Below, one piece after another: positions 37,056 to 53,162 of a stretch of 64,000 nt of DNA. This DNA comes from a bacterium (lineage in GTDB: Bacteria > Omnitrophota > Gorgyraeia > Aquiviventales > Aquiviventaceae), in assembly GCA_036396895.1 (NCBI GenBank), contig DASWKB010000038.1:13145-77144 (forward strand), given 5' to 3'. The notes under the pieces are model-generated. The model did no database searches and was not told where the DNA came from. It worked only from the letters and a program-made list of their open reading frames with translations. Made by a program: the position numbers and the translations under genes. The stretch's first letter is position 1; every line of letters starts with the position of its first letter.

Positions 37056-38773
37056 CCTGCTCGGACGCGGCGGGAAGCCATGACGGCGCCCAGGAGCGCG
37101 ATGAACGCCGCTTCTCCGATGGCGTACGCGATCAAGAGCGGCGGGATCGGCTTCGCGTTCCCGCCGGCATAGCTGTGCAGGCCGACCAGATAGAAGCTCA
37201 CACCATAATACGTCATCAAGAGCAGGAAGAATCCCGCGATCGTGGCCATCGCCACGCCGGCCGGCCGCAGCCAGCCGGCGAACCGGCCGTGCAGCACCGC
37301 GATGAACCACAAGAGCGTGATGAGCGCCCAGGTCTCCTTGGGATCCCAGCCCCAGTACCGGCCCCAGGACGCGTTCGCCCAGACCGCCCCGAGCATGATC
37401 CCGGCCGCCAGGAGCACCACGCCGACCTGAATCGTCCGGTAGAGCCACAGATCGAGCGCGGCGAGCGTGGCGTCCTCGCGGCGCGCGAGATACTTCGCGC
37501 CCGCAAAGTGCGCCAGGACCGCCGCCAGCGCCAGCGCGCCGTAGCTCGCCACGATCGTGAGGACGTGCACGGTAAGCCACAGGTTGCTGCGCAGCACGGC
37601 GACGATCGGGGTGATGCTGGAATCCAGCGGCAGATGGTCCGCCAGGATCAGGGTGATGACGGCGAGGATCGACGCCGCCAGCGCGAAGAACCGCACGCGG
37701 TAGCGCCACTCGAACACGAAGGCGAGGACGACCGCGACGAACGGCAGCCAGAGCATGGTCTCGTAGAAGTTCGCCACCGGAGGCCGCTCGGCAAGCACCA
37801 CCCGCGCGACCATGCCGCCCGCGTGGAGGGCCGCCGCCAACGTCATCGCGGCCATCCCGATCGCCGCCGCCCGCCGCGAGCCCGCCGCTGCCGTCGAGGT
37901 GCCGCCGGGTGTGACGCCCGGCGCACCCGCGCGCAGCCCGGCCGCCAGGGCCAGGATCGCCAGGACGTACGCGATGCGGGCGAGCAGGAACGGCTCGAGC
38001 CGGTTGTACCACACCTCGAGCGTGAGGCGCCACTCCGCGGGATACGCGGACGGCTGAAGGTCCCGGAGAGTCCGGCGAAGCGACCGCGCCGATTGCCCAA
38101 GCGCCTCCGCATCGCCGCCTCGCACGGCCTGGACGAAGGAGGCCCATGCGCCGCGGACGGTGTCCCGCGCCTCCGGCGGGTGGCCGGCCGGGTTCAGCAC
38201 GGGCAGCCAGGTCCGCTCAAGCCGCGACGCGGGCGGGACGAGATCGAGCTCCTGTTCAAAGAGGAGATTGAGCGTGACGAAGCGGTCGTACACGTCCATC
38301 GTTTCGTTCTCGGCGATGGTGAGCTTCTCATCGCGCTGCTGCTTCGCCACGATGGGCGGCAACAGCTGCATGAGCCGCCGCGTCGCGATGATCCCGTGGT
38401 AGGAGACGTGCGCGGACTCATCCGGCACCCCCAGCGCGTCGCGCAACGGGCCATACGGCACGGCGATGAGCGGCGCGTCCTGCCAGCGCTCCGGCTCCGC
38501 GATCAAGGAGAGCGTCGTCGCCACCGGGTCCTGCCCCCCCAGGGTCGGCGATCCCGTCAGATGCTTCAGGGTCTCCCAGGCGAAGCTGTCGAAGGGTTTG
38601 TGGCGCCCATGGTGCTGGATGACGATCCGCCGCGCGCCCGAGAGCGCCGCCTCCGGCCAGTCCCGCACGTCGGGCACGTCCCCGGCTGCCTGGACGGCGA
38701 TCCCCGCCGACATGACGAGTCCGCACGCGAGGCCCCAGACGCGCCAGGCGCGCCGCCGAGTGCCGATCATGCG
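37049..38773 (-). CDS. ccsA: Cytochrome c biogenesis protein CcsA/ResC (System II) with a large N-terminal periplasmic domain
   Basis: WWD domain WGRYWGWDPKETWAL and multiple TM helices. Confidence 0.8.
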   Translation of the reverse strand, partial: RMIGTRRRAWRVWGLACGLVMSAGIAVQAAGDVPDVRDWPEAALSGARRIVIQHHGRHKPFDSFAWETLKHLTGSPTLGGQDPVATTLSLIAEPERWQDAPLIAVPYGPLRDALGVPDESAHVSYHGIIATRRLMQLLPPIVAKQQRDEKLTIAENETMDVYDRFVTLNLLFEQELDLVPPASRLERTWLPVLNPAGHPPEARDTVRGAWASFVQAVRGGDAEALGQSARSLRRTLRDLQPSAYPAEWRLTLEVWYNRLEPFLLARIAYVLAILALAAGLRAGAPGVTPGGTSTAAAGSRRAAAIGMAAMTLAAALHAGGMVARVVLAERPPVANFYETMLWLPFVAVVLAFVFEWRYRVRFFALAASILAVITLILADHLPLDSSITPIVAVLRSNLWLTVHVLTIVASYGALALAAVLAHFAGAKYLARREDATLAALDLWLYRTIQVGVVLLAAGIMLGAVWANASWGRYWGWDPKETWALITLLWFIAVLHGRFAGWLRPAGVAMATIAGFFLLLMTYYGVSFYLVGLHSYAGGNAKPIPPLLIAYAIGEAAFIALLGAVMASRRVRAGA

Positions 38774-40512
38774 CCCCCTCCCCCCCAGCGCGCCGCCTTC
38801 GCCCGCCGCGCGATGAACATCCACACGACCCCGAGAATCACGATGAGAAATCCGGCGTACACCAGCGGCGTGCCGGGATCGTTCCGCACCGACAGCACCG
38901 TCGTTTCCACTGCGCCCGGGACGAAGCTCGACTGGAACAGGCTGTACCCGCGGTACTTGAGCGGGTTGTTCATGCTGATCTTGCGCATGAGGATAACGCC
39001 CCGCTCCAGGTCGCTCAGGTGGACGTCGCTTTCGAAGCCGGCGGCCATCTGCGTGCCGGGATAATCGATCTTCCTGAAGTCCAGCAGCTTCACGGTGAAC
39101 GGCAGCTCGCGCGTCTGCTGCTCGTAGCTCACCGTCACGGGGTGCCCGTTGAGATCCAGCTCGAGCGCGCCGCCGGATCCGACCCAGCCGTCGGCTTCAG
39201 CGTCGCTCGAGGACAGCGTCACGTGCAGCGCTTCCCCCCTGACCTCGTCGCTGCGGTTCGTCACGCGCTGCTCCAGGACGGCGCGCGGCGCGTACGCCTC
39301 CACGCGGAACACGTACTCGAGCCAAGGGTGCGTATACGTCTCGCCCGGCTCCAGATGCTCGACATGCCGCCGTTCGCCCGCCCGGCCGGTCAGCACCGCG
39401 CCCAGCCGCTCGGCGCCCGGATGCACGTAGAGCGCGATCGCATTCGGCGGCAGCGACGCCGAGAAGGGATGCGTGTAGCTCACCTGGGCCGGAATCTGAT
39501 GCTGCCAGCCGTGCATGGACGCGATGTCCGGATGGAAGGCGAAGAGCAGGTACGGGTCGGTCCCCTCCGGTCCGCTCAGCGTGAAGGCCACCGCGGGATT
39601 GTTCGGAGAGTCCGAGCGGGATTCGGGGCCATCCTCGCCGATCACGAAGTCAGGAAAGTAGTCGCGGAACGTGATCGTGTACGGAGTCCCCTCGACCGGG
39701 ATGGGCGTGTGCATCGTCTCCGGCACAGGAATGTCGCGCGCACCCAGGTCCGGCAGCGCCACGGCCACGACCCCCCGCAGGTGGCGGGTGGCCGGAACCG
39801 GCTCGATGAGGCGCGCGGCGTCGGCCTCCGTTTCCGGCTCGAGGAAGATGACGTGCGCGTCGCCCCAGCCGATCCCGAACCGCTCCGGGTCGCGCGCGAA
39901 GAGCCACAGCGCGTCCTGCTGGAGCCCGTGTTCCACCCTGACCCGCACGGCCGGGTTCGCCTCAGGCCCGCCATCGGTGACCTCGTCCTGCACCACCGCG
40001 TCCGGATAATACCGGTTCACCGTGAGCTCCAGGCGGCGGCCCTCCAGCTCGGCCGAGAACGACGCGTCGGGCTCGTGCACCCAGGCCTGCGTCTCGAAGA
40101 AGGTCGGGAACGCCCGGTGCCCGCCGGGATTCGGCTGATGCAGCACGAGGACCTTGCCCGGAAGCAGCAGCGTCCGGTTGGCCTCCCCTTCGCGGATCAC
40201 GAGCTGGCCCTCGATGCCGAAGCGGCCGCCGATGATGCCGCCGAGGAGAATGCAGATGATCCCGAGGTGCGCCAGGAGGAACGGCACGTGCTTGCGCTTC
40301 CACGGCACGCGACGCAGCGCCGACACCACCAGGTTCACCGCGAGAAATCCGAGGATCCCCTGGAACCACCACGCCTGGTAGATGAAGCGCTGGACGGAGG
40401 CCGTGCCGTAACGCGTCTCATAGATCGTGCCCCACGCCAGCACGATCGCGATCGCGAGGATCAGCGCGACCGCCATCTGGAGTGAGCCCATCCAACGAAG
40501 GAGTCGAGTCAT
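38767..40512 (-). CDS. ccsB: Cytochrome c biogenesis protein CcsB/ResB (System II)
   Basis: 581 aa with N-terminal TM helices and the ResB family N-terminus (…WGTIYETRYGTASVQRFIYQAWWF…). Confidence 0.8.
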   Translation of the reverse strand: MTRLLRWMGSLQMAVALILAIAIVLAWGTIYETRYGTASVQRFIYQAWWFQGILGFLAVNLVVSALRRVPWKRKHVPFLLAHLGIICILLGGIIGGRFGIEGQLVIREGEANRTLLLPGKVLVLHQPNPGGHRAFPTFFETQAWVHEPDASFSAELEGRRLELTVNRYYPDAVVQDEVTDGGPEANPAVRVRVEHGLQQDALWLFARDPERFGIGWGDAHVIFLEPETEADAARLIEPVPATRHLRGVVAVALPDLGARDIPVPETMHTPIPVEGTPYTITFRDYFPDFVIGEDGPESRSDSPNNPAVAFTLSGPEGTDPYLLFAFHPDIASMHGWQHQIPAQVSYTHPFSASLPPNAIALYVHPGAERLGAVLTGRAGERRHVEHLEPGETYTHPWLEYVFRVEAYAPRAVLEQRVTNRSDEVRGEALHVTLSSSDAEADGWVGSGGALELDLNGHPVTVSYEQQTRELPFTVKLLDFRKIDYPGTQMAAGFESDVHLSDLERGVILMRKISMNNPLKYRGYSLFQSSFVPGAVETTVLSVRNDPGTPLVYAGFLIVILGVVWMFIARRAKAARWGGGGA

Positions 40513-40686: not shown

Positions 40687-42603
40687 CTACACCTCGTCAT
40701 CCGGCTCGTTCTCGCGGTGGGCCCGATCCGACTCCGAGGGCCGCCCGCTGATCCACGTCCACTTCATCGGGTACTCGTCCGGGTCGAACATCACGAAGTA
40801 GAAGTGCCACACGGCGATCGCCAGGCACGCGAGGACCGCCTCGTAGTAGTGAATCGCGTTCACCACGTCGAAGCACCACTTCGGGAACACGCGCAGCGTC
40901 CAGTCCTGCCAGGTCATCAGCGTGCCCGTCAGCACCATCACGATGGAGCCCCACACGAGCGCCCAGTACTCCATCTTCTCGACATAGCTGTAGCGGGCGA
41001 AGACCGGCCGCGCCGCGCGCCGTCCCAGGTAGAACGCCAGCATGCGGAACGGATCGATGAGATCGCGGCGCCTCGGCCACAGCGCCGCCAGCTCCTTCCT
41101 GCCGCGCGTCGTGGCGGCCATGAACCACAGGTGGTACACCGACAGCAGCACGAACAGCGCCGCCGCGACCCGGTGCCCCATGCTCCGCCAATCGAACCGG
41201 CCGACGAAGGGGCTCGACCACCAGGCCTGCGGGAACGACAGCGCGAAGCCCGTGTAGGCCAGCGTCAGGAACGCGAGAATCAACAGGACGTGCTGGAGGC
41301 GCTCGCCGCGCTGCATCCGCATGCCGGTGGCCTGAGCCCGGTGGCGGCGGTAATGCTCGGCGAGCTTCCGCCTGAAGTCCAGGAAGTTGTGCGCGAGCAT
41401 CCCGCCGATCACCATCACGATCAGCGCCAGGTAGAACCTGCGGACCCACCCGACGACGCGGTGCTCCAGGCCCGGCCGGGTGCCTGAGTGGATCTGCCCT
41501 TTGGCGACCTGGGCGCTGACGCCGGGGTGGCACTTCCCGCAGGTCTGCGGCAGGTTCGAGGGATGCACCGAGGAGCGGGGGTCGTTCGAGGGGAGGATAT
41601 CGTGGGCCCCGTGGCAGGAGGCGCAGTTCGCCGCCGTCGGCATGCCCATCTGCAGCGCAAGCCCGTGGAAGCTCGACATGTAGGTGTCGACGGTGTGCGA
41701 CGGGAGCCCGTACTTGGTGATGATGCGCTCGGCTGCGTGGCACTGCCCGCACGTCTCGGGAATGTGCGAGGGGAAGACCGACGATGCGGCCAGCTTCACG
41801 GACGCGATGGTGTGCTCGCCGTGGCAGTCGGTGCAGACCGGCGCCTCGCGCTTCCCCGCCTGGACGGCGCCGCCGTGGACGCTGCGCAGGTACGTCTGCT
41901 GGATGTTCTCATGGCATTTCCCGCAGGTGGCCGGGATGCGCTGCCAGTAGAGCTTCGACCCCGGATTGGTCGCGCGGTGCAGATCGTGCGAGCCGTGGCA
42001 GTCCGTGCACACGGCCGCCGCCGCCACGCCCCGCTCGATGAGCGCCCGGCCGTGCACGCTCTCATCGTAGGAGGCCACCGGCTCGGGCTGCGCCAGCCGG
42101 AACCGGGCCATCTCGGCGGTCTTCCCGTGGCATTGCGCGCAGGTCTCGGGAATGTTGGCCCGGTGCACGGGCGAGGCGGGGTTGCGCGAGCTCAGCAGCT
42201 CATGGGCGTTGCCGTGGCAGCTGCGGCAGGTCGCCGCTTCGGTGACGCCGGCTTTCAGCGCCAGGCCGTGATCGCTGTTCAGGTAGACTTCGGTCTCGAT
42301 CCGGTGGCAGGAGGCGCAGCTCACGGGCGCAAGCGGCACGCCGTGCGGGATCTCCGTCACGTCCCGGTGGCAGCTCGTGCAGCGGTTGCGGCCGTGGATC
42401 GAGGCTCCGAACAGCTCGGGGTCGATGAACGGGTCCGCGGACGGGTCGCCGTGGCACGCCAGGCACGTGTCATTGTCCGGAGCCTCCTGCGCGCGCGCCG
42501 GCGCTGCGAATGCCAACACCAATCCCAGCGCCAACCATCGTGCCAAATTCGGAATTCGGAATGCGGAATGGCTCGGCGTACCGTTCGATGTGGAATGTGT
42601 CAT
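40687..42603 (-). CDS. Undecaheme c-type cytochrome fused to a C-terminal diheme cytochrome b (HydC/FdnI-like) membrane domain; same architecture as Geobacter CbcL
   Basis: 11 CxxCH motifs follow a signal peptide. The C-terminal 4-5 TM helices carry conserved His (MLAHNFLDF, SVYHLWF, NAIHYYEAVL, AVWHFYF). The start codon and N-region lie inside the GGAATKC element. Confidence 0.7.
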   Translation of the reverse strand: MTHSTSNGTPSHSAFRIPNLARWLALGLVLAFAAPARAQEAPDNDTCLACHGDPSADPFIDPELFGASIHGRNRCTSCHRDVTEIPHGVPLAPVSCASCHRIETEVYLNSDHGLALKAGVTEAATCRSCHGNAHELLSSRNPASPVHRANIPETCAQCHGKTAEMARFRLAQPEPVASYDESVHGRALIERGVAAAAVCTDCHGSHDLHRATNPGSKLYWQRIPATCGKCHENIQQTYLRSVHGGAVQAGKREAPVCTDCHGEHTIASVKLAASSVFPSHIPETCGQCHAAERIITKYGLPSHTVDTYMSSFHGLALQMGMPTAANCASCHGAHDILPSNDPRSSVHPSNLPQTCGKCHPGVSAQVAKGQIHSGTRPGLEHRVVGWVRRFYLALIVMVIGGMLAHNFLDFRRKLAEHYRRHRAQATGMRMQRGERLQHVLLILAFLTLAYTGFALSFPQAWWSSPFVGRFDWRSMGHRVAAALFVLLSVYHLWFMAATTRGRKELAALWPRRRDLIDPFRMLAFYLGRRAARPVFARYSYVEKMEYWALVWGSIVMVLTGTLMTWQDWTLRVFPKWCFDVVNAIHYYEAVLACLAIAVWHFYFVMFDPDEYPMKWTWISGRPSESDRAHRENEPDDEV

Positions 42604-42678
42604 GGACCGGCCGAGCGGGCATGACACGTTACACATCCAACATGACACAATCGGGATTCCGCATTCCGCATTTGGCAC
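42540..42678. repeat. Heptamer-array hairpin element, GGAATKC family, copy 2 (longest; near-perfect terminal inverted repeats)
   Basis: gtgccaaattcggaattcggaatgcggaatg …(unique core with tgtcatg/catgaca and ggctcggc/gccgagc sub-palindromes)… gggattccgcattccgcatttggcac. Confidence 0.75.
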
Positions 42679-42686
42679 TGATTTCG

Positions 42687-44200
<1,514 letters not shown>

Positions 44201-44201
<1 letters not shown>

Positions 44202-45485
44202 CACGAGCGCTCCCCCCGCGAGCCGTCCGGGCGGTCCAACTCCCTGATCCGCAGCACGAGGCCGAGGATCAAGAGCCCCAGGATCACGAGCGTCACCCAA
44301 AAGCCCTTGCGGCGGAAGTGGAACTCCTCCACCGCCTGCTCCCCCTGCCCCGCGGCCTCATCCGCATGGGCAAGCCCCTCCTCGACGATGGGGTCCATCT
44401 TGTCCATCGAAAAGGCGTGCACATACGCCCGCGACTGCGTCAGTTTGGCGCCCGCCTCGTGGAGCTCGAATTCCGCGTCCGCCACGTCCATGCCCAGGCC
44501 GTCGGCCTGTTCGATCAGGGCATTCGCGTCCTGCACGCGGGTCTTGAGCCGCTCGATTGCCCCGCGCATCGCTTGGGCGGTGCGGAACCCCGCGGACTCG
44601 GGCTCGTGGCAGCTGACGCAGAGCGCCTCGGGGCCGGTCCCGAGCATCTCGTCCGTCGGCCTGGCGATCAAATGGTTGCCGTGGCACACCTCGCACTCCG
44701 GCAGCCCCAACGCCTCGTGCGCCGCTTTGTGCGGGCTGTTGACGAACAGGTCGCGCGAGAGCGCGTGGCACTGGGCGCACACGTTGCCGACGGCGAGCGT
44801 GCCCGGGCGGGCGGCCTCGTGTGATCCGTGGCAGCTGGCGCAATGGGGCGCCGCGCGGTCGCCCCGGAACAACAGCGCCTGGCCGTGCACGCTCCGCGAA
44901 TATTCCCAGTGCTGATTGACCGGCAGCCCGTGCCGGTCCATGACGGACGCGTCCGCATGGCACGTCGCGCACGTCCCGGGGATGTTGGTCGCATAGACCG
45001 GCGAGGAGGGGTTGCGCGCCTGCAGGATCCCGTGGACGCCGTGACAGCTCGTGCAGACGGGAACGTCGGCGTCGTGCGCGGCGAAGCGTTTGCCGTGCTG
45101 GCTCGTCAGGTACTTCGCGTACTGGTCGGTCGGCAGGTTCGGATTGAACCGCCGCATGTACTCCGGATTCGCGTGGCACCGGGCGCAGAGCGCCGGGATC
45201 TCCTCGCGCCGGATATGCCCGAGGAACCCCCGCGCGGGATCCATGGCCGCCTCCGGATCCATGGAGGCGGGATCTCCCCCGTGGCAGTCGGCGCACGTGA
45301 GCCCGCGCGCGGCATGCACATCGTCGGGAAACAGCGCGGCCGGCCCCCGGGTGCCGCCCTCCATGGCCTGATGGCATTCCACGCACCCGCTGCCCTTGGT
45401 CTGTGCCTGCGCCGCCGGCGCCCATGCCGGGATCGCGAGCGCCGCGACGACGCCGGCTCGCAGCACCACCGCCGAGCGCGTCATG
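44201..45485 (-). CDS. Nonaheme c-type cytochrome with signal peptide and C-terminal TM anchor
   Basis: From MTRSAVVLRAGVVAALAIPAWAPAAQA; 9 CxxCH; C-terminal WVTLVILGLLILGLVL helix. Its ATGA overlap with the cytochrome b stop suggests translational coupling. Confidence 0.75.
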
Positions 45486-46560
45486 GCGCGTGCCCGATCC
45501 AGAGCGCGTAGACCGTCATGCCCACCACGTAGCTCATCCCGACCCACCCCAGCAGCGCCATCAGCCAATGCGCCCGTCCGCGGCGGGCCGGACGGTCCAG
45601 CCACGGCACCAGCACCAGCGCGGCGCCCGCAATCCCGATGCCGCCGATGGCGAGCAGCTCTCCTTCCAAGCCGAAGACATGGCTCGGCACCAGCTTCAAG
45701 GTCTGAAACATCCAGAGGAAGTACCATTCCGGCTCGATGCCGGCCGGCGTCGGCGCGAAGGGATCCGCCTGCTCGCCCAGCGTGGCCGGCAGGTACACCG
45801 CGAGGGCCAGCACCGCCCCGAGCATCACGCACCATGCGACCAGATCCCGGAGCAGGAAGTCCGGCACGAACGGCATGCTGCGCTCGTCCCGCACAGAGAG
45901 CGGCCGGCTCATCCCCTGCATCTGAATCATGGCCAGATGCGCGCCCAGCAGGCCCAGGAGCGCGATCGGCAGGATGGCGATATGCAGCCAATAGAACCGC
46001 CGGATGGTCGCCGCGCCCACTTCCGGACCTCCGCGCAGCATGGTCCCGATGACCGGGCCGATCCCGGGCACGGCCGCGGAGATTTCCGTGCCGACTTTCG
46101 TCGCGAAGTACGCGAGCGTATTCCACGGCAGGAGGTACCCGGTGAATCCGAAGCCCATCAGGAGGAAAAACAGGAGCGCCCCGCTGACCCAGGTCAGTTC
46201 CCGGGGCGGGCGGTACGCCTTCAGGAAAAACGTGCTCGCCAGATGCACGAAGGCGGAGAGGATCGCCACGTTCGCCGCCCAGGCGTGCACCGAGCGCACG
46301 AGCCAGCCGAACTCCACCTTGGTCATGATGAAGCGGACGGACTCGAACGCGTGCTCGGCGGAGGGCTGATAGTACAGCAGCAGCAGGATGCCGCTCAGAA
46401 TCTGGATGACGATCAGGACAAGCGTCATGCCGCCCCAGTAATACCAGATCGTGTGCCGGTGGACGGGCACCGTCTTGTGGGACGCGAACTCGCCGAGGCG
46501 CTGCAGGGGATAGCGGCTGTGGAAGAAGCCGCGCAGCCGCTCAGCCGCGCGCGCGAACAT
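45481..46560 (-). CDS. petB: Cytochrome b (bc1/b6f family, b6 + subunit IV fused length)
   Basis: …WGGMTLVLIVIQILSGILLLLYY…, the heme-ligand His regions (SVHAWAANVAILSAFVHL…) and a PEW-like region (LPW). Confidence 0.85.
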   Translation of the reverse strand: MFARAAERLRGFFHSRYPLQRLGEFASHKTVPVHRHTIWYYWGGMTLVLIVIQILSGILLLLYYQPSAEHAFESVRFIMTKVEFGWLVRSVHAWAANVAILSAFVHLASTFFLKAYRPPRELTWVSGALLFFLLMGFGFTGYLLPWNTLAYFATKVGTEISAAVPGIGPVIGTMLRGGPEVGAATIRRFYWLHIAILPIALLGLLGAHLAMIQMQGMSRPLSVRDERSMPFVPDFLLRDLVAWCVMLGAVLALAVYLPATLGEQADPFAPTPAGIEPEWYFLWMFQTLKLVPSHVFGLEGELLAIGGIGIAGAALVLVPWLDRPARRGRAHWLMALLGWVGMSYVVGMTVYALWIGHAP

Positions 46561-46811: not shown

Positions 46812-47294
46812 TCATGAGGATTTCGACACGACAATGTCATCGCCGCGGATGTTGACCTGAAACGCCTCGAGCGGCCGCGGAGGAGGCCCCGAGATCACCT
46901 GGCCGTTCAGGTCGAACTTGCCGTTGTGGCAGGCGCACCAGATGACGCTGGCGTGATCGTCGTACTGCACGGTGCAGTTCAGGTGCGTGCACACGGCGGA
47001 AAACGCCTTCAGGTCTCCGTGCGGCGTATGGACGAGCAGCGCGGGCTGGGACCCGAACCGGAAGATCTTGGCCTGGTTGGCGGCCAGCTCGCCGACTCTC
47101 CCCGCCACCACGTTCGACACCGAAGCTTCCCGGCCCATGGGAGGATAGAGATACCGCACGATCGGGTAGAGAGTCGACCCGATCAGGGCGAGGACGCCGC
47201 CTTTCAGGAGCCCCCCGAGGAACGCGCGCCGGCTGAACCCCCGGCGCGGACACATAATCCCGTTTGACGGTTCCATCTCGTTGCTCCGACGCAC
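46812..47294 (-). CDS. petA: Rieske [2Fe-2S] iron-sulfur protein with twin-arginine signal
   Basis: Tat motif SRRAFLGG; Rieske boxes CTHLNC and CACHNG. Confidence 0.8.
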   Translation of the reverse strand: MRRSNEMEPSNGIMCPRRGFSRRAFLGGLLKGGVLALIGSTLYPIVRYLYPPMGREASVSNVVAGRVGELAANQAKIFRFGSQPALLVHTPHGDLKAFSAVCTHLNCTVQYDDHASVIWCACHNGKFDLNGQVISGPPPRPLEAFQVNIRGDDIVVSKSS

Positions 47295-47394
47295 AAGAGG
47301 AGGCCGCCCGCCGGCTCCCGCGCATCCGCGCGTCAGTCAGGTCGCCTGGCGGGCGGCCTCCGCAGTGCCCGTGACGCCGTGCCGGAAGCCCGGA

Positions 47395-49431
47395 TCAGAA
47401 CTTCTTCGACACCTCCAACCACAATGCGTTCGCCCGGTAGTTGCCCGCCTCCGCCAAAGACTTGGCCAGATAATGATAATATCCGTACTTCGCGCCGAGT
47501 GTCACGTCCTCCTTCGGCGACCAGTTCACGCCGAGCTCCAGGTCGAGCCGCTCGTTGTCGATGCCGTACGGCAGCGCCGTCGGCGACACGTCATTGAAGT
47601 TCTCCGCGTCGGCATAGAGCAGCGAGGACGTCAGCGACACCGCGGACGTCGGCGTGTAATCGACGGTCAAGAGCCAGGTGGTGACATCGCTGCTGAACGC
47701 CGCGATCGGCGGGTTCGGACCGTGGCGGGCCGGCGTGACCACGTCCGCATCTTGCCGGGACACGGACCCCAGCACCAGGAGCCCATTGAGCGGCTGGAGC
47801 GCCACATCGTAGGTATAGATGTGCGACAACGTCTGCGTCTCGACGCTGTTCATGCCCTGCACCGCGGTCGCGTAGTCATCGTCCCGCAGCTGGTAGCGGA
47901 ACGAGGTGCGCAGCCAGCGCCGTGGCTTGAGCGTCACGCGGGTCGTGAACTCATCCGTGGCCTTGTTGGCATAGTCGATGAACGCGGAGCTGAACGACGT
48001 CTCGAATTGGTCGTCGTAGTCATTGTTGCTCCGTTTGTGGCGCACCTGGCTCGTCACGTCCAGGAACCGCCACGGCGAGCTCCGGGCGCCCAGCGTCCAG
48101 CCGCCGCGGCGGACATCGGTCACCGTGTCCCGGTAGAAGGAGTTCGCGCCCGTGATCCCGTCGGATTGATCTTCGCGAAGCCGGATGCGCGCCTGCTCCA
48201 GCTCGAGGTCCGTGTACACCGACGTACGGGGGATTCCGGTGAACTTGAGCGAGACCGCTTCGCCCCAGCGGTGCTCGTTCGAATCGCTGATGTTGTTCTC
48301 GATCCCGTCGATCACGCCGTCGGGCGACGCCCCGGAGGCCGGCGAGCCGTCTTCAGGATATACGGAGACGCTCTCGCGTTTCGCGAGCTCCGCCTTGAGC
48401 CGGGTGGTCAGCGTGAGCGAGTCCGCGACGTCCACCGCCAGGTTGCCGACCCAGGCGTGCGTATCCACATCGCTGTCGGCGCGCGCGTTCCGCTTCTGCT
48501 CCGAGAAGCTGAAGAAATTCGTCGGCACCCCCGCCGCGTTCAATTCATACAGGTCTTCGTATTCGCGGGCCGTCAGGTGCGCGAAGTGATACGCGCTGGC
48601 GAAGAACACCTTTTCTTCCAGGAACGCCCGCTCCGCGCCGAAGAGCGAGGTCAGCACCGCCGCCTCCGGGCGCTGGTCGTGCCGCCGCATCAGCTTGTCG
48701 GCGGCGGTGGCGGTGGTCGAGATGTCCCGCTCGAGCCGCACGGATTCGATGTCGACGAACTCCGCCTCGTGCTTGGTGGTCAGGTTCCACTCCGCCACCT
48801 CGTCGGCGATCTCGAAGCCCACGACGTCGACGATCTCATCCACTTCCTGCCAAGTGGGCGCGATATTCCGGGTCACCGCCTCCTCCGCTTCGCTCCAGGT
48901 GAGGCGGGATTTCGTGCCGTCCTTGTACTCGCGTTCATAGAACAGCTTGATGTCCGGGAAATCCTCGAGCGTGAGGCCCGCCTCCAGCTCGATCTTGCCG
49001 ATGTCCATCTCCAGGCGCTTGTCCGTTTCGCTCCCCGAGAGCGTCGTGAACGGCGGATACACGCCGCCCGTGCCGTCGTAGTATTTCCGGAATTCCTGGA
49101 AATTCAGGTGGACGTACCCGAGGCCGCCCCAGTTGTACTCGAGCGCCGTCCCGAGATCGTTATCGTCGATGATGGCGTGCCCGGTTGCGCGGAATTCGGT
49201 GTCGCCCTCCCCTTCGACCTTGAGGGAGAAATCCTCGATGCCGCCGCCGTAGCCGTCCTTGATCCAGTGGTGCGCCCGGAACTTCTCGTCATCCCCCTGC
49301 ACGTCGATATAGCGCACGGGCAGCACCGTGATCGAGGACTCCATCTCGGCGGCCGCCGCGGTCCGGGCGCTCCCCAGGAGGCCGCCCACGGCCATGACCA
49401 GCGCCCCCACCGCACCGATCGTCGCTCTCAT
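47395..49431 (-). CDS. Outer-membrane beta-barrel protein (large, about 650 aa mature; C-terminal Phe)
   Basis: Signal peptide MRATIGAVGALVMAVGGLLGSARTAAAA, alternating amphipathic beta-strand pattern with aromatic girdle residues throughout, and a terminal …LWLEVSKKF. Confidence 0.55.
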   Translation of the reverse strand: MRATIGAVGALVMAVGGLLGSARTAAAAEMESSITVLPVRYIDVQGDDEKFRAHHWIKDGYGGGIEDFSLKVEGEGDTEFRATGHAIIDDNDLGTALEYNWGGLGYVHLNFQEFRKYYDGTGGVYPPFTTLSGSETDKRLEMDIGKIELEAGLTLEDFPDIKLFYEREYKDGTKSRLTWSEAEEAVTRNIAPTWQEVDEIVDVVGFEIADEVAEWNLTTKHEAEFVDIESVRLERDISTTATAADKLMRRHDQRPEAAVLTSLFGAERAFLEEKVFFASAYHFAHLTAREYEDLYELNAAGVPTNFFSFSEQKRNARADSDVDTHAWVGNLAVDVADSLTLTTRLKAELAKRESVSVYPEDGSPASGASPDGVIDGIENNISDSNEHRWGEAVSLKFTGIPRTSVYTDLELEQARIRLREDQSDGITGANSFYRDTVTDVRRGGWTLGARSSPWRFLDVTSQVRHKRSNNDYDDQFETSFSSAFIDYANKATDEFTTRVTLKPRRWLRTSFRYQLRDDDYATAVQGMNSVETQTLSHIYTYDVALQPLNGLLVLGSVSRQDADVVTPARHGPNPPIAAFSSDVTTWLLTVDYTPTSAVSLTSSLLYADAENFNDVSPTALPYGIDNERLDLELGVNWSPKEDVTLGAKYGYYHYLAKSLAEAGNYRANALWLEVSKKF

Positions 49432-49449
49432 CTCGCCTCCTCCCTCGCC

Positions 49450-50568
49450 TCAATACCGCAGGTGGTCGCTGAAGTTCGACCCGTGGACCGCCGTGTGGCA
49501 GCCCGCGCTGAAACACGTCCCTTCCGGTAGGCGACCCGCATGGCCCGAATTCCCGATGCTCGGGAAGTTGACCTGGGTGTGGCAGCGCAGGCACAGGTTC
49601 GCGTCCCGCGCGACCAGCATCTTGTCGTTGATCGAACCGTGAACCTGGTGGCACTCGGTGCATCCCTCGCGCAGCGCTTCGTGCTCGAACACGAACGGCC
49701 CTCGCTGCTCCTTGTGGCACTTGAAGCACGCCTCGTTCGTGCCGTGGAGGCTCGTCGCCGACCAGGGGCGGACGTCCGTCGCGTGCGCGTCATGGCAGTC
49801 CGCGCAGCTCATCTTGCCTTCCAGCACCGGGTGGTGGTGCGTCATCCGGAACTGCATCTTCTTGTCCGTGTGGCAGGCGAAGCACGCGTTGGGGTCCTTG
49901 CGGGGGTTGATCATTCCGCCGACGCCGCGGCCTCCGCCGGCGTCCACATGGAGGCTGCCCGGCCCATGACAAGTCTCGCATCCTTGCGCCTTGAGGCCCT
50001 CCACCTCGCCCGGAATGGCAATGCGCGCGTGCGAAGAGTGCTTGAACTCCTTGGCCTCCTTGGCGTGGCACATGGCGCAGGTCTCCGTGCCGACGTATTC
50101 CGCCTTGGGCGCCTCCTCCGCTCCGTCCTCCGCCTGCTCATCGGCCCATGCCGCCGGCATCGCCAGGGAGGCCAGATACCGGTTGACCGACCGCGGTGGC
50201 AGCGAAGATTGCGGGCTGCCGGGCAGGGAGGCGGGGTCGGACGGGTTTGTGCCGGCGTTCAGCTCCTCGCCGTTCGTCGCGCCGTCTTCGTCGGCGTCCT
50301 GATCCTCGACGGCGCGGTAGTCCTCGATCGTGAGGGCCAGGGCGTTCCCGGCCCCCTTGAGCGCCTCGAGCGCCTTGCCGTAGGCGTTCAGGTCGCCTTT
50401 CTTCCCGACCGCGCTCTCATGGCAAGCCTTGCACGTCACGGCCTTCGTGTCCGGATAGGCGGCCTTAAAACTCTTCACGTTCTGGATCGTCGCCCAAGCC
50501 GAAGGCGCCATGACGAGCCACGCCAACAAGCCTCCCACTATGCCCAGCATGCCCCGCATGTCCCGCAT
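49450..50568 (-). CDS. Multiheme c-type cytochrome (8 CxxCH + 1 CX4CH) with an N-terminal monoheme/DxDxDG Ca-binding-like domain
   Basis: Signal peptide; CKACH, then DQDADEDGATNGEE, then CAMCH, CETCH, CFACH, CADCH, CFKCH, CTECH, CLRCH, and CFSAGCH near the C-terminus. Confidence 0.7.
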   Translation of the reverse strand: MRDMRGMLGIVGGLLAWLVMAPSAWATIQNVKSFKAAYPDTKAVTCKACHESAVGKKGDLNAYGKALEALKGAGNALALTIEDYRAVEDQDADEDGATNGEELNAGTNPSDPASLPGSPQSSLPPRSVNRYLASLAMPAAWADEQAEDGAEEAPKAEYVGTETCAMCHAKEAKEFKHSSHARIAIPGEVEGLKAQGCETCHGPGSLHVDAGGGRGVGGMINPRKDPNACFACHTDKKMQFRMTHHHPVLEGKMSCADCHDAHATDVRPWSATSLHGTNEACFKCHKEQRGPFVFEHEALREGCTECHQVHGSINDKMLVARDANLCLRCHTQVNFPSIGNSGHAGRLPEGTCFSAGCHTAVHGSNFSDHLRY

Positions 50569-50618
50569 TGCTCCCCCCTCAGGCTGCATCCGCGCACCAC
50601 ACTCGGCCGTTCCTGAGC

Positions 50619-50996
50619 TTATGATGACGGCGAACCCTCCGGAGCCGACGCGGGATCGGACGGATCCGTCCCCGCCTCGAGCTCCTCGCCGTTGGTCGCG
50701 CCGTCTTCGTCAGCGTCCTGGTCCTCGACGGCGCGGTAGTCCTCGACCGTCAGGGTCAGGGCGTTCCCGGCGCCCTTGAGCGCCTCGAGCGCCTTGCCGT
50801 AGGCGTTCAGGTTTCCCTTCTTGCCGATCGCGGCCTCATGGCAGACCTTGCACGTCACGACCTTCGTGCCCGGATAGGCGTCCTTAAAACTCTTGACGTT
50901 CTGGATCGTCGCCCGGGCCGAGGGCGCCATGACGAGCGCCGCCGCGATGACGCCGAGCCCGATTACGAGACCGTGACCGATTCGCATGGCTGGTTC
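50619..50996 (-). CDS. Small secreted monoheme cytochrome c with a DxDxDG motif; tandem paralog of the N-terminal domain of the downstream multiheme cytochrome
   Basis: MRIGHGLVIGLGVIAAALVMAPSARA signal, CKVCHE, DQDADEDGATNGEE. DNA about 90% identical to 50224-50520. Confidence 0.6.
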   Translation of the reverse strand, partial: EPAMRIGHGLVIGLGVIAAALVMAPSARATIQNVKSFKDAYPGTKVVTCKVCHEAAIGKKGNLNAYGKALEALKGAGNALTLTVEDYRAVEDQDADEDGATNGEELEAGTDPSDPASAPEGSPSS

Positions 50997-52087
50997 TCCT
51001 GCGCGTCCGTCCGCCACCACCGCAGAAAATGCTCGGTCTGCCGCGACAGCATGGCGCGGCACGATGCCACGGCCCGGCGGCGGCTCGCCAGTGTCGTGTC
51101 CACGGCCGTTTGCAGATCGTCGATGTTGTAGAGCGTGACGCCCGGCATGCGGCCGACCGCCGGATCCACGTTCCTCGGCACCGAGAGATCGACGATGACG
51201 AGCGGGCGGGATCCTCGGACGGCCTGCGCCGATTCGATATCGCCGGGATCGATCACGTAGTGCGGCGCCTGCGTGCAGACGATCGCGACATCGATGTGCG
51301 CGAGATGCCGCTGGGCCTGCTCCCATGAGAGCCAACCGCCGGAGCACAACGAGGCCAGTTCCCTGGCTTTGGCCTGGGTTCGGTTGACGACCCAGACCTG
51401 GCCGATGCCCGCGGCGGTGAGATGGCGCACCGTCGTTTCCGCGGCCTTGCCCGCGCCCCACAACAGCGCATGCGCCTCGCCGAGACGCTCGCCGAAGAGC
51501 CGGCGGAGGAGCCCCGCCACCACGGACCCGATCGACCCCGGACCGCCGTTCACGGCCGTGCGCGTGCGGATCAGCTTGGCGGCATGGAGGGCCTTTTGGA
51601 AGAGCCGGTTCAGGAGCATGCCGGTGGCACCGGCGTCCTGCGCGGTGAGGTAGGCCTGCTTGACCTGCGCGGCGATCTCGGACTCGCCCAGCACCATGGA
51701 GTCCAACCCTGAGGCCACCTGGAACAGGTGGGACACGGCGTCGTGGTTCGCGCGCCGGACCAGCGCCGCCTCGAGCCGGGCCGGTTCCGCTCCGGCCCGG
51801 GCCGCGAACATCTCGCACGCCGCGCGGGCGGCCGCATCGGGATCAGTCCCTGCCAGATAGCATTCGACGCGGTTGCACGTCGAGAGCACCACGGCCTCGT
51901 CGATGGCCGCCGATGCGCACAGCGCGCGGAGCGCATCGGGCAGCTCGCGGGGGTGGAAGGCCAGCCGGTCGCGCAGATCGAGCCCCGTGCCGCGGTAGTG
52001 CACCCCCACCACCGCGAGCGCCCGCGCCCGCGCCGAGGAGGAAGGCGCCGCGCCAGCAATGGGCTGGATGTGGTCTGTCTGCGCAGT
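50963..52087 (-). CDS. hemA: Glutamyl-tRNA reductase
   Basis: …VLSTCNRVECY…, a C-terminal NAD-binding and dimerization region, about 375 aa from MTAQTDHIQP. Confidence 0.85.
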   Translation of the reverse strand, partial: TAQTDHIQPIAGAAPSSSARARALAVVGVHYRGTGLDLRDRLAFHPRELPDALRALCASAAIDEAVVLSTCNRVECYLAGTDPDAAARAACEMFAARAGAEPARLEAALVRRANHDAVSHLFQVASGLDSMVLGESEIAAQVKQAYLTAQDAGATGMLLNRLFQKALHAAKLIRTRTAVNGGPGSIGSVVAGLLRRLFGERLGEAHALLWGAGKAAETTVRHLTAAGIGQVWVVNRTQAKARELASLCSGGWLSWEQAQRHLAHIDVAIVCTQAPHYVIDPGDIESAQAVRGSRPLVIVDLSVPRNVDPAVGRMPGVTLYNIDDLQTAVDTTLASRRRAVASCRAMLSRQTEHFLRWWRTDAQENQPCESVTVS

Positions 52088-52207
52088 CATGGACGGATTG
52101 GGAGAATTATAGTCCCGCCTCTCGGCCGGCGCTAGGATGGAATTGTGCTCGAAGGGCATGCCTGATCTATCCAGATACGTCGAGTATTCGAAGACAGGAC
52201 ATCCGTC

Positions 52208-52567
52208 TCAGTTCCGCTCCGTCAGGCACGGGAACCCGGCGCTCCGGCCCCCGTGCCGGGCGCAGCAGGGAAACGTCCCGGTCAGCCGGTACCGGACGCA
52301 TTGCCCTTCCCTGATGGCCTCGACCAGCCCCGCCGCGCGCAAGATCGCCAGATGGTGCGACACGCGCGCGGGTCTCACGCGCAGGCGCCTCGCCAGCTCG
52401 CCCACATGCTCGCTGCGCGACAGCAGGGCGCGCACGAGCCCAAACCGGATCGGATCTCCCATCGCCTGGAACAGGATCACGCACGCCTCCGGCGTCCGGG
52501 GAGCCTGGGCCTGCCAGCCGCTGCCGTTGTTGACGGCCGATTCAACTTCGCGTCGGGATCGCCTCAT
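52208..52567 (-). CDS. ArsR/SmtB family transcriptional regulator
   Basis: …LFQAMGDPIRFGLVRALLSRSEHVGELARRLRVRPARVSHHLAILRAAGLV… (winged HTH). Confidence 0.7.
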   Translation of the reverse strand: MRRSRREVESAVNNGSGWQAQAPRTPEACVILFQAMGDPIRFGLVRALLSRSEHVGELARRLRVRPARVSHHLAILRAAGLVEAIREGQCVRYRLTGTFPCCARHGGRSAGFPCLTERN

Positions 52568-53162
52568 TCAGCGCATCCAGCAGCTGGTCGATCCGCATGC
52601 CATAGCACCACGCGACCTCCTCGAGCGTCGCGCTGCCGTGCCAGCGCCGATTGACCCGCAGCGCATCGACCACCGCGGCGAGCTCCGGAAACCGGCGCAG
52701 CGTCGCGTTCAGCGTGGCGTCCTTCGTGATGGGCCACACGGCCGCCGCCCCCGCGGGCGGCAGCTGCTCCAACAGCGGGAACAGCAGATCGTGCTCCCGT
52801 TGGGTGTGAACCCGGTAGAGCGCGAGGAAATGCTCCGCGAACGTCGTGAACGACTCCTGGCCCGGCATGACGCCGCCTCTGGCCAGCGCCTTCAGGACCG
52901 TCAGCGATTCCAGCAGATCCCGGTGCTCCGCCAGCAGCACTTCGATCAGCGCGGGATCCGCCTGGCCCGAGGCCCGAAACGGCACGTAGAACTGCCGCTC
53001 TTCCTGCGCGATATGCTCGGTGAGCCTGACCGCGCAGGCGTCGAGAAACGGGAGCAGATCTTCCGGCGGCACCCGCATATGCGATGTCACCCACAGATCG
53101 AGATGGGCCAGCGTCGCGTCAAGCAACTCATGGTCGTCATGCAGCCATGCGAGCCGATTCAT
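52542..53162 (-). CDS. Hemerythrin HHE domain + C-terminal DUF1858 protein (second paralog)
   Basis: HDDHELL, TEHIAQEE and EHRDLLE motifs, plus C-terminal …LRRFPELAAVVDALRVNRRWHGSATLEEVAWCYGM…. Confidence 0.6.
   Translation of the reverse strand: MNRLAWLHDDHELLDATLAHLDLWVTSHMRVPPEDLLPFLDACAVRLTEHIAQEERQFYVPFRASGQADPALIEVLLAEHRDLLESLTVLKALARGGVMPGQESFTTFAEHFLALYRVHTQREHDLLFPLLEQLPPAGAAAVWPITKDATLNATLRRFPELAAVVDALRVNRRWHGSATLEEVAWCYGMRIDQLLDALNEAIPTRS

Follow-up and report, generated by a model that had tools for sequence, protein, structure and literature searches.

Among the known routes by which electrons cross the outer membrane, porin-cytochrome conduits are the main one. To our knowledge, how such a conduit is linked to the inner membrane has been established only in a few Proteobacteria (MtoD, PioC, CymA, STC/FccA). 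Here we analysed two adjacent cytochrome genes in a stretch of 64,000 nucleotides (nt) from an Omnitrophota genome (assembly GCA_036396895.1, contig DASWKB010000038.1, positions 13,145 to 77,144 of the forward strand), which is called the window throughout. Gene S encodes a small c-type cytochrome module as a free protein, and gene F encodes a closely similar module fused to a multiheme cytochrome. The two genes share a tract of 297 nt that is best explained by gene conversion between old paralogues, and the module may act as a periplasmic electron relay. Loci (L) and public proteins (P) are referred to by number.

In Mto clusters, a relay of electrons from MtoA by small periplasmic cytochromes is established, and this role has been proposed for MtoD and for the Cytc1/Cytc2 pair (PMC5566968). 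The locus in the window resembles the MtoAB loci of Sideroxydans/Gallionellaceae in that a small monoheme cytochrome, predicted to be periplasmic, is encoded together with an MtrA/MtrB-type pair and is a candidate for the relay to the inner membrane; two small cytochrome genes in tandem are likewise found in Mto clusters (PMC5566968). However, no sequence relationship to MtoD was detected. A profile search of the module against the PDB retrieved no MtoD or class I cytochrome chain at E<=1, and no Pfam model of the Cytochrom_C type matched it. In contrast to MtoD, the module has a predicted Ca2+ loop, has neither a Met nor a second His, and also occurs fused to an MtrA-like protein.

PioA of Rhodopseudomonas palustris TIE-1 has an extension of ~200 amino acids (aa) without a recognisable domain or heme, which is proteolytically removed (PMC6831781). 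F is similar to PioA in being an MtrA-type cytochrome encoded next to an MtrB/PioB-type porin. Like PioA, it carries a long extension at its N-terminus, with a putative counterpart of the internal hydrophobic stretch (AxA-like) ahead of the first heme of the conserved part. In contrast to PioA, the extension of F is a predicted heme/Ca2+ module of ~95 aa, for which there is a gene of its own as well. With its C-terminal 240 aa, F matches the MtrA/DmsE decaheme model TIGR03508 (162.5 bits) and GSU2203-type models, and the next gene encodes an MtrB_PioB barrel. However, this part of F has eight heme sites instead of ten, the last one being CX4CH, and its scores are below the cut-offs, i.e. 192.2 bits for TIGR03508, and also for the GSU2203-type models.

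The coordinates of S, F and their neighbours are compiled in Table 1. A preliminary description of the window had assigned 125 aa to the free protein (50619-50996) and 379 aa to the fused cytochrome. The free gene exists, but three codons of that open reading frame (ORF) precede the ATG at 50987, so that the protein has 122 aa. The ORF of 379 aa also exists, but the likely start of F is at 50568 (MRDMRG..., with GGGGAG 5 nt upstream), giving 372 aa, or at 50550, as in the public annotation (366 aa). S consists of a signal peptide ending ARA/T (the slash marks the cleavage site), one CXXCH and one loop of the TSP3/EF-hand type. F comprises a signal peptide, the S-like module, a linker rich in Pro, Ser and acidic residues that varies in length within the family, the motif YLASLAMPAAWA, and the MtrA/DmsE-like part; one heme site of the module thus precedes eight further sites (seven CXXCH and one CX4CH). 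The signal peptides of both copies have n-, h- and c-regions and end with AxA/T. No terminator-like site was detected across 47000-52600, the S-F junction included, and promoter-like sites in this range are confined to 47476-47505, far from the junction, which is consistent with co-transcription of S and F.

Table 1. Features of the S-F locus and its conserved neighbours (window coordinates)
Feature	Position	Strand	Remarks
Repeat tract, copy in S	50647..50943	-	signal-peptide codon 18 to six codons before stop
Repeat tract, copy in F	50228..50524	-	88% identical to 50647-50943
Gene S, free small c-type cytochrome module (122 aa)	50619..50987	-	identical to public protein P0001
Gene F, fused multiheme cytochrome	49450..50568 (ORF reaches 50589)	-	public protein P0011
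Heme motif CKVCH of S	50838..50852	-	C46, C49, H50 invariant in alignment A2
Heme motif CKACH of F N-terminal module	50419..50433	-	one CXXCH
Predicted Ca2+ loop of S, DADEDGATNGEE	50682..50717	-	EF-hand positions 1, 3, 5, 6, 9, 12 = D, D, D, G, N, E
Predicted Ca2+ loop of F, same 12 residues as S	50263..50298	-	sequence
Internal motif YLASLAMPAAWA of F	50143..50178	-	aa 138-149 of 379-aa ORF; ~20 aa before heme site 2
Eight heme sites of F MtrA/DmsE-like part	49495..50079	-	7 CXXCH + terminal CFSAGCH
hemA (glutamyl-tRNA reductase)	50963..52159	-	precedes the module in every close relative
MtrB/PioB-type outer-membrane beta-barrel, 678 aa, ends ...KKF	47395..49431	-	PF11854 30.3 bits, cut-off 23
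Rieske protein	46812-47294	-	conserved downstream partner
Cytochrome b	45481-46560	-	conserved downstream partner

A repeat search of 49400-51100 revealed a single long direct repeat with two copies of 297 nt, which align without gaps at 88% identity and have a start-to-start spacing of 419 nt. A MAFFT alignment delimited the same tract. The preliminary description had reported a segment of ~290 bp present twice at ~90% DNA identity, one copy being free and the other forming the N-terminus of a multiheme cytochrome, and this is borne out: both copies have a signal peptide, a CXXCH and an acidic loop, and the motifs named there, i.e. CK(A/V)CHE, NAYGKALEALKGAGNAL and the acidic loop DQDADEDGATNGEE, are all found in both. 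The 35 mismatches among the 297 positions are not significantly clustered (longest exact run 40 nt, P = 0.14). At the protein level, S and F are 78% identical across 123 aa (E 4e-64), and the mature modules are 86% identical. The similarity is far beyond chance. An inverted repeat (71% complementary) inside the direct repeat was taken as a chance occurrence.

The differences between the two copies are structured by codon position. Across codons 18-116 of the tract, first positions are 91% identical, second positions 94% and third positions 77%. The Nei-Gojobori estimates are 0.39 for the synonymous divergence (dS) and 0.075 for the nonsynonymous divergence (dN), corresponding to a dN/dS of ~0.19. 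Because of this codon-position structure and the low dN/dS, both copies are regarded as real, diverged and under purifying selection.

The borders of the tract are informative about its origin. In windows of 30 nt, the in-register identity is 0.83-1.0 within the tract and 0.27-0.47 outside, the chance value being ~0.29. The jump at the 5' border takes ~30 nt, whereas at the 3' border the identity falls off less steeply. Local alignments of the flanks (150 nt upstream and 128 nt downstream) are no better than those of shuffled sequences. The 17 signal-peptide codons ahead of the tract are equal in number in S and F, and only 23 of their 51 nt are identical (45%). This weakly exceeds chance (P = 0.01) and is lower than the identity of 0.69 expected if these codons were as old as the tract and neutral (binomial P = 3e-4). 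A simple, fresh tandem duplication of a 419-nt unit was rejected, as the identity stays at the chance level in the other 122 nt of the unit and in the two flanks.

Thus, a sharp-bordered tract of high identity is embedded in otherwise diverged homologous genes, as is typical of gene conversion. In addition, the paralogues appear to be older than the tract. In L007, which has both forms, S and F are only 64% identical at the aa level. In a neighbour-joining (NJ) tree of 93 residues, which is weakly resolved except for the S+F pair, the S and F of the window are sisters in 99 of 100 bootstraps, and free and fused forms are intermixed across the rest of the tree. The S/F tract is therefore best read as the result of gene conversion between two old adjacent paralogues. 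At least 297 bp would have been homogenised between S and F by non-reciprocal recombination, and the tract would then have gathered a dS of ~0.39 with purifying selection on both copies. Of the two origins offered in the preliminary description, i.e. recent duplication or ongoing gene conversion, the latter fits, while a recent duplication does not agree with the dS, with flanks at the level of shuffled sequence, and with the age and wide distribution of both forms. Conversion is preferred because a duplication requires a new signal peptide of the same length between the copies as well as the erasure of the rest of the unit. As such, the case is an ordinary one of concerted evolution of adjacent paralogues, and homogenisation of paralogues is commonplace. 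Taken as a whole, converted old paralogues that encode a periplasmic one-electron relay module are the explanation that we favour, with moderate confidence.

The repeat could also date from a segmental duplication, in which a domain-sized piece of F was copied in an ancestor with the order hemA-F-MtrB, as present in L008-L010, L086 and L087. The upstream copy would have gained a stop codon, the downstream copy a new ribosome-binding site and signal peptide, and the 88% identity would reflect the age of the duplication. The five nearest syntenic relatives indeed have F directly after hemA and no free copy, the start of S overlaps the stop of hemA (by ~25 nt) exactly like the start of F in L087, and S and F are each other's closest relatives. 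Nevertheless, we consider this origin unlikely, because the spacing is 419 nt and the similarity extends over just 297 nt, the other 122 nt and both flanks being at chance instead of the ~70% expected at the dS of the tract. Moreover, a complete signal peptide of the same length and with the same cleavage motif would have to arise de novo between the copies, and L007 already holds coexisting, diverged free and fused genes. A false repeat, due to a collapsed or duplicated contig end, might be suspected in a metagenome-assembled genome (MAG), from which the sequence was taken. However, the 35 differences in 297 positions fall mostly on third codon positions, each copy lies in an intact ORF whose signal peptide, tail and flanks differ from those of the other, no exact run exceeds 40 nt, and the repeat is internal to a public contig of 77.7 kb in which both genes are annotated. 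An assembly artefact is thus effectively refuted.

Several points weigh against gene conversion of a relay module as the explanation. No close relative was found, the best orthologous module being 72% identical at the aa level, and a metagenome scan for close relatives of S yielded only TSP3-loop fragments and no closer outgroup; the conversion is therefore neither polarised nor dated against orthologues. Two sequences are too few for a formal test of the GENECONV type. Synonymous sites may be constrained in a genome with 69% GC, so that dS may understate the age, which weakens the argument that the flanks are older. Signal peptides evolve fast, and the NJ tree is poorly resolved outside the S+F pair. 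With respect to the relay, the mature module has no Met and a single His, that of the CXXCH, and thus no candidate of either kind for the sixth heme ligand. The AlphaFold2 (AF2) model of S is of only moderate quality (predicted local distance difference test, pLDDT, 76), and a Foldseek search with this model against the PDB gave no match.

The distribution of the two forms was examined in public proteins and in 79 genome loci, which were scanned with an alignment of fused proteins (A3) and annotated by blastp and hmmsearch. In the search with F, full-length fused proteins (335-425 aa, 1+7 CXXCH) formed ~60 clusters, and many unfused forms of ~260 aa with their own signal peptides were retrieved as well, mostly from Omnitrophota MAGs. 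In the search for homologues of the standalone domain, which had been suggested in the preliminary description, free proteins formed 10 clusters. Both the free and the fused form are old, and each is widespread among Omnitrophota-type genomes.

The gene order in the window is hemA-S-F-MtrB-Rieske-cyt b-multiheme. Five loci (L008, L009, L010, L086, and L087) have the order (radical SAM-NnrS-)hemA-F-MtrB-Rieske-cyt b-multiheme, and L018 has hemA-S-unfused MtrA-like-MtrB-Rieske-cyt b. In L001-L005, the order is hemA-S-Cyc2-like cytochrome-porin-209-aa protein-Rieske-cyt b-multiheme, and in L007 it is hemA-S-Cyc2-like-X-F-MtrB. The succession of hemA, module, outer-membrane conduit, Rieske, cytochrome b and multiheme is kept in L001, L005, L008-L010, L018, L086 and L087. 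In more distant loci, the MtrA-like gene is directly preceded by one or two genes for short monoheme proteins (87-130 aa), from which the acidic loop is absent.

Two short monoheme genes (94-134 aa) upstream of an MtrA-like gene were found in L045 (5169-5846), L048 (4694-5395), L049 (1560-2149), L050 (7186-7899), and L025 (5537-7854). They are adjacent in four of these loci and ~1.6 kb apart in L025; their products have no Ca2+ loop but one more conserved His (GxHExNxYG). The presence of such pairs in distant Omnitrophota-type loci indicates that duplication of the small gene is recurrent.

Two loci from different samples, L088 (hemA-S-Cyc2-like) and L086 (hemA-F-MtrB), are 100% identical for 324 nt, after which identity abruptly falls to ~60% (L088:1-781 vs L086:5823-6620). 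The identical part comprises the 3' end of hemA, the signal-peptide codons and, of the module, everything as far as the CXXCH codons. The junction could be a true S x F recombinant or the product of an assembler crossing an identical tract. Either cause implies that S and F share, or once shared, identical sequence in that population. In one fused homologue, P0033 (409 aa), a short hemA-like fragment (PF05201; ...VILPTCNRIELYV...) precedes the signal peptide, probably due to an over-extended ORF call across the hemA/F overlap.

The module itself was characterised with an alignment of 24 family members (A2). The invariant positions are the cleavage context A/T, the heme motif residues C46, C49 and H50, L60, G64 and L67 of the motif LNxYGxxL, and D91, D93, D95, G96, E102, and G106. 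Both copies have a Sec signal peptide and the conserved CXXCH, as expected for c-type cytochromes, from which we infer heme attachment. The C-terminal half contains a loop of 12 residues with D1, D3, D5, G6 and E12 between two helices, the arrangement of EF-hand and TSP3 loops, so that Ca2+ binding is predicted. In the AF2 model of S, the loop lies between helices 81-86 and 99-105; the model of whole F (mean pLDDT 40) was not used. The matches in the PDB profile search are nearly all EF-hand proteins, which align in register with weak E values (0.0014-1). When 1.84 billion representative proteins were searched with the profile, 5244 matched at E<=1e-3. The top matches are giant proteins that align to profile positions 89-118 only, 10-50 times each, and one of them carries 23 TSP3_bac repeats.

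The resemblance of the loop to Ca-binding motifs of the thrombospondin or dockerin type, which the preliminary description had pointed out, is supported by the TSP3_bac scores, by these matches to TSP3_bac arrays, and by the invariance of D91, D93, D95, G96, and E102. In its layout CXXCH-LNxYG-DxDxDG, the module is similar to Temptin_C, TSP3_bac, EF-hand and diheme_GEGP, and its loop fits the spacing of TSP3_bac and EF-hand. However, S and F are below every curated cut-off, i.e. 25 bits for TSP3_bac (Pfam PF18884; S 23.2 and F 23.9 bits, a full-length match to a model of 22 positions), 27 bits for Temptin_C (Pfam PF24784; 19.9 and 19.0 bits), and 300 bits for diheme_GEGP (NCBIfam NF041762; 36.1 and 34.2 bits, profile positions 46-126 only). 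The module has one CXXCH versus two hemes of diheme_GEGP. Some homologues pass the TSP3_bac cut-off, PF18884 being listed for P0004, P0008, and P0031.

Three metagenomic proteins, P0141 (643 aa), P0182 (466 aa), and P0194 (388 aa), consist of 4-8 tandem units with the layout CXXCH-LNxYG-DxDxDG. They pass Temptin_C (40-58 bits) and EF-hand_1; modules with heme plus Ca2+ may thus form a wider family.

The heme half may be related to that of Cyc2. Profile-profile comparison with the N-terminus of the Cyc2-like proteins encoded next to S in related loci (hhalign) gave probabilities of 94% (E 9e-8) and, without signal peptides, 87% (E 4e-6), over 27 columns only. In Cyc2-type heme modules, SCxVCH is likewise located right after the signal peptide and followed by LNxYG 6-9 residues on, and the free module is encoded immediately upstream of the Cyc2-like gene in L001-L005, L007 and L088. 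In contrast to Cyc2, the module described here is soluble or fused to a multiheme protein, and not to a barrel. The best explanation of its sequence is that the module combines a Cyc2-like heme site (SCKxCH, with LNxYG 8-9 residues on) with a putative helix-loop-helix that has a single TSP3/EF-hand-type loop (DxDxDGx5E). The module reaches no curated-family threshold, and what has been known are porin-cytochrome clusters with small periplasmic cytochromes. A description of the module was not found in the literature on Omnitrophota multiheme cytochromes and extracellular electron transfer, on cytochromes combined with EF-hands and porin-cytochromes, or on temptin combined with heme.

The Cyc2-like proteins have 409-431 aa (L001 2137-3366, L005 8441-9670, L007 5940-7235), a signal peptide followed by a single CXXCH (AIPAWARKYGVSCNVCH...LNDYG), and a C-terminal Phe. 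Each gene is followed by a conserved gene for an unannotated secreted protein of 199-209 aa. We take the neighbours of 409 aa to be probable Cyc2 proteins on the basis of the N-terminal pattern of Cyc2 together with size, single CXXCH and C-terminal Phe; no Pfam or NCBIfam model matched them.

Could the module have a function other than electron transfer? The CXXCH might be a structural or metal site, and the module might serve in docking or adhesion in a Ca2+-dependent way, comparable to thrombospondin or dockerin, as the preliminary description had suggested for the loop. In favour of this, loops of the TSP3/EF-hand/dockerin type match the C-terminal half, Temptin_C, which is the closest Pfam model, owes its name to a non-heme animal pheromone, and no distal heme ligand is evident. 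Yet the CXXCH is invariant, the gene is always located among those for c-type cytochromes, hemA and a ResB-type maturation protein, the heme half resembles the heme module of Cyc2-like cytochrome-porins, and the short relatives lose the Ca2+ loop and keep the CXXCH. We therefore regard a non-redox module as very improbable. A further possibility concerns the fate of the N-terminal module of F, which might not be permanent. F would be a precursor from which the module is released at the internal AWA site, so that S and F would deliver nearly the same free small cytochrome, kept similar in both genes by conversion. The fused family has the consensus LQAYLxxLxxPxAWA(D/E) between the variable linker and heme site 2, at the same position in P0012-P0062, and this motif is conserved although the length and sequence of the linker vary. 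Its aligned counterpart in unfused MtrA-like homologues is the end of the signal peptide, e.g. in L018 (...SVWA/DEGE), and in PioA cleavage takes place within a hydrophobic region inside the protein, before the first heme site (PMC6831781). The motif YLASLAMPAAWA may thus be a relic of the c-region of a signal peptide or a processing site like that of PioA. However, the YLxxLxxPxAWA stretch, which follows an N-terminal extension, is short (~12 residues) and amphipathic, and not a membrane-spanning h-region. No protease has been identified, the extension of PioA has no heme or recognisable domain, and the proposal rests entirely on analogy. Release of the module is accordingly regarded as improbable.

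The redox reading of the module leads back to the conduit. In the periplasm, the module would relay single electrons between the porin-cytochrome conduit of the outer membrane and, at the inner membrane, the complex of Rieske protein, cytochrome b and multihemes that is encoded downstream. This relay is inferred because the module is always found between hemA and the outer-membrane conduit, ahead of the Rieske/cytochrome b complex. The free copy S would be a diffusible carrier and the fused copy a tethered heme for entry or exit, while Ca2+ would stabilise the fold of the module or a docking surface. A relay is the simplest reading, as proposed for MtoD and the Cytc1/Cytc2 pair; electrons might flow in either direction, i.e. 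in metal oxidation or reduction.

The composition of the operon in the window, which is one for iron/electron transfer, is as follows. The barrel gene starts 18 nt downstream of F, forming a gene pair of the MtrAB/PioAB type that is conserved in the 79 loci. Further downstream are the genes for the Rieske protein, cytochrome b, three multiheme cytochromes (9, 6 and 11 CXXCH) and ResB, so that a cytochrome maturation gene of the ResB type belongs to the same operon, and upstream are hemA and the genes for a hemerythrin, NnrS and a radical SAM protein. No extracellular cytochrome of the MtrC type was identified in the family and similarity searches run on this operon. A protein of 738 aa, in which 11 CXXCH are fused to a cytochrome b561/Ni_hydr_CYTB membrane domain (40687-42903, minus strand), is encoded between a NapC/NirT-like cytochrome gene (42687-44300) and ResB (38767-40512). 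The 641-aa ORF of the cytochrome with 9 CXXCH (44201-46126, minus strand) overlaps the cytochrome b gene (45481-46560, minus strand) by ~650 nt, and its real start is probably near MTRSAVVLRAG (~aa 215).

At its most far-reaching, the analysis may point to an undescribed class of periplasmic electron carrier. Its members would be soluble and Ca2+-binding, with a Cyc2-type heme site and a ligation other than His/Met, and would serve in Omnitrophota as a common adaptor of Cyc2-like or MtrAB-like conduits to the Rieske/cytochrome b complex. The fused copy would be cleaved at the conserved internal AWA site, and recurrent recombination between S and F, as suggested by the tract in the window and by L086/L088, would keep the copies matched. 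We put this forward as a speculative proposal with a low probability; if it is true, the operon makes the same carrier from two genes.

The operon in the window and the ~80 loci related to it are an indication that, in Omnitrophota-type bacteria, the small cytochrome acting between the conduit and the inner membrane is a different one. This cytochrome would have a Ca2+ loop, be related to the heme site of Cyc2, and be exchanged between free and fused forms. The module is an easily expressed target of 10 kDa for studies of electron relay and Ca2+ dependence in an uncultured phylum.

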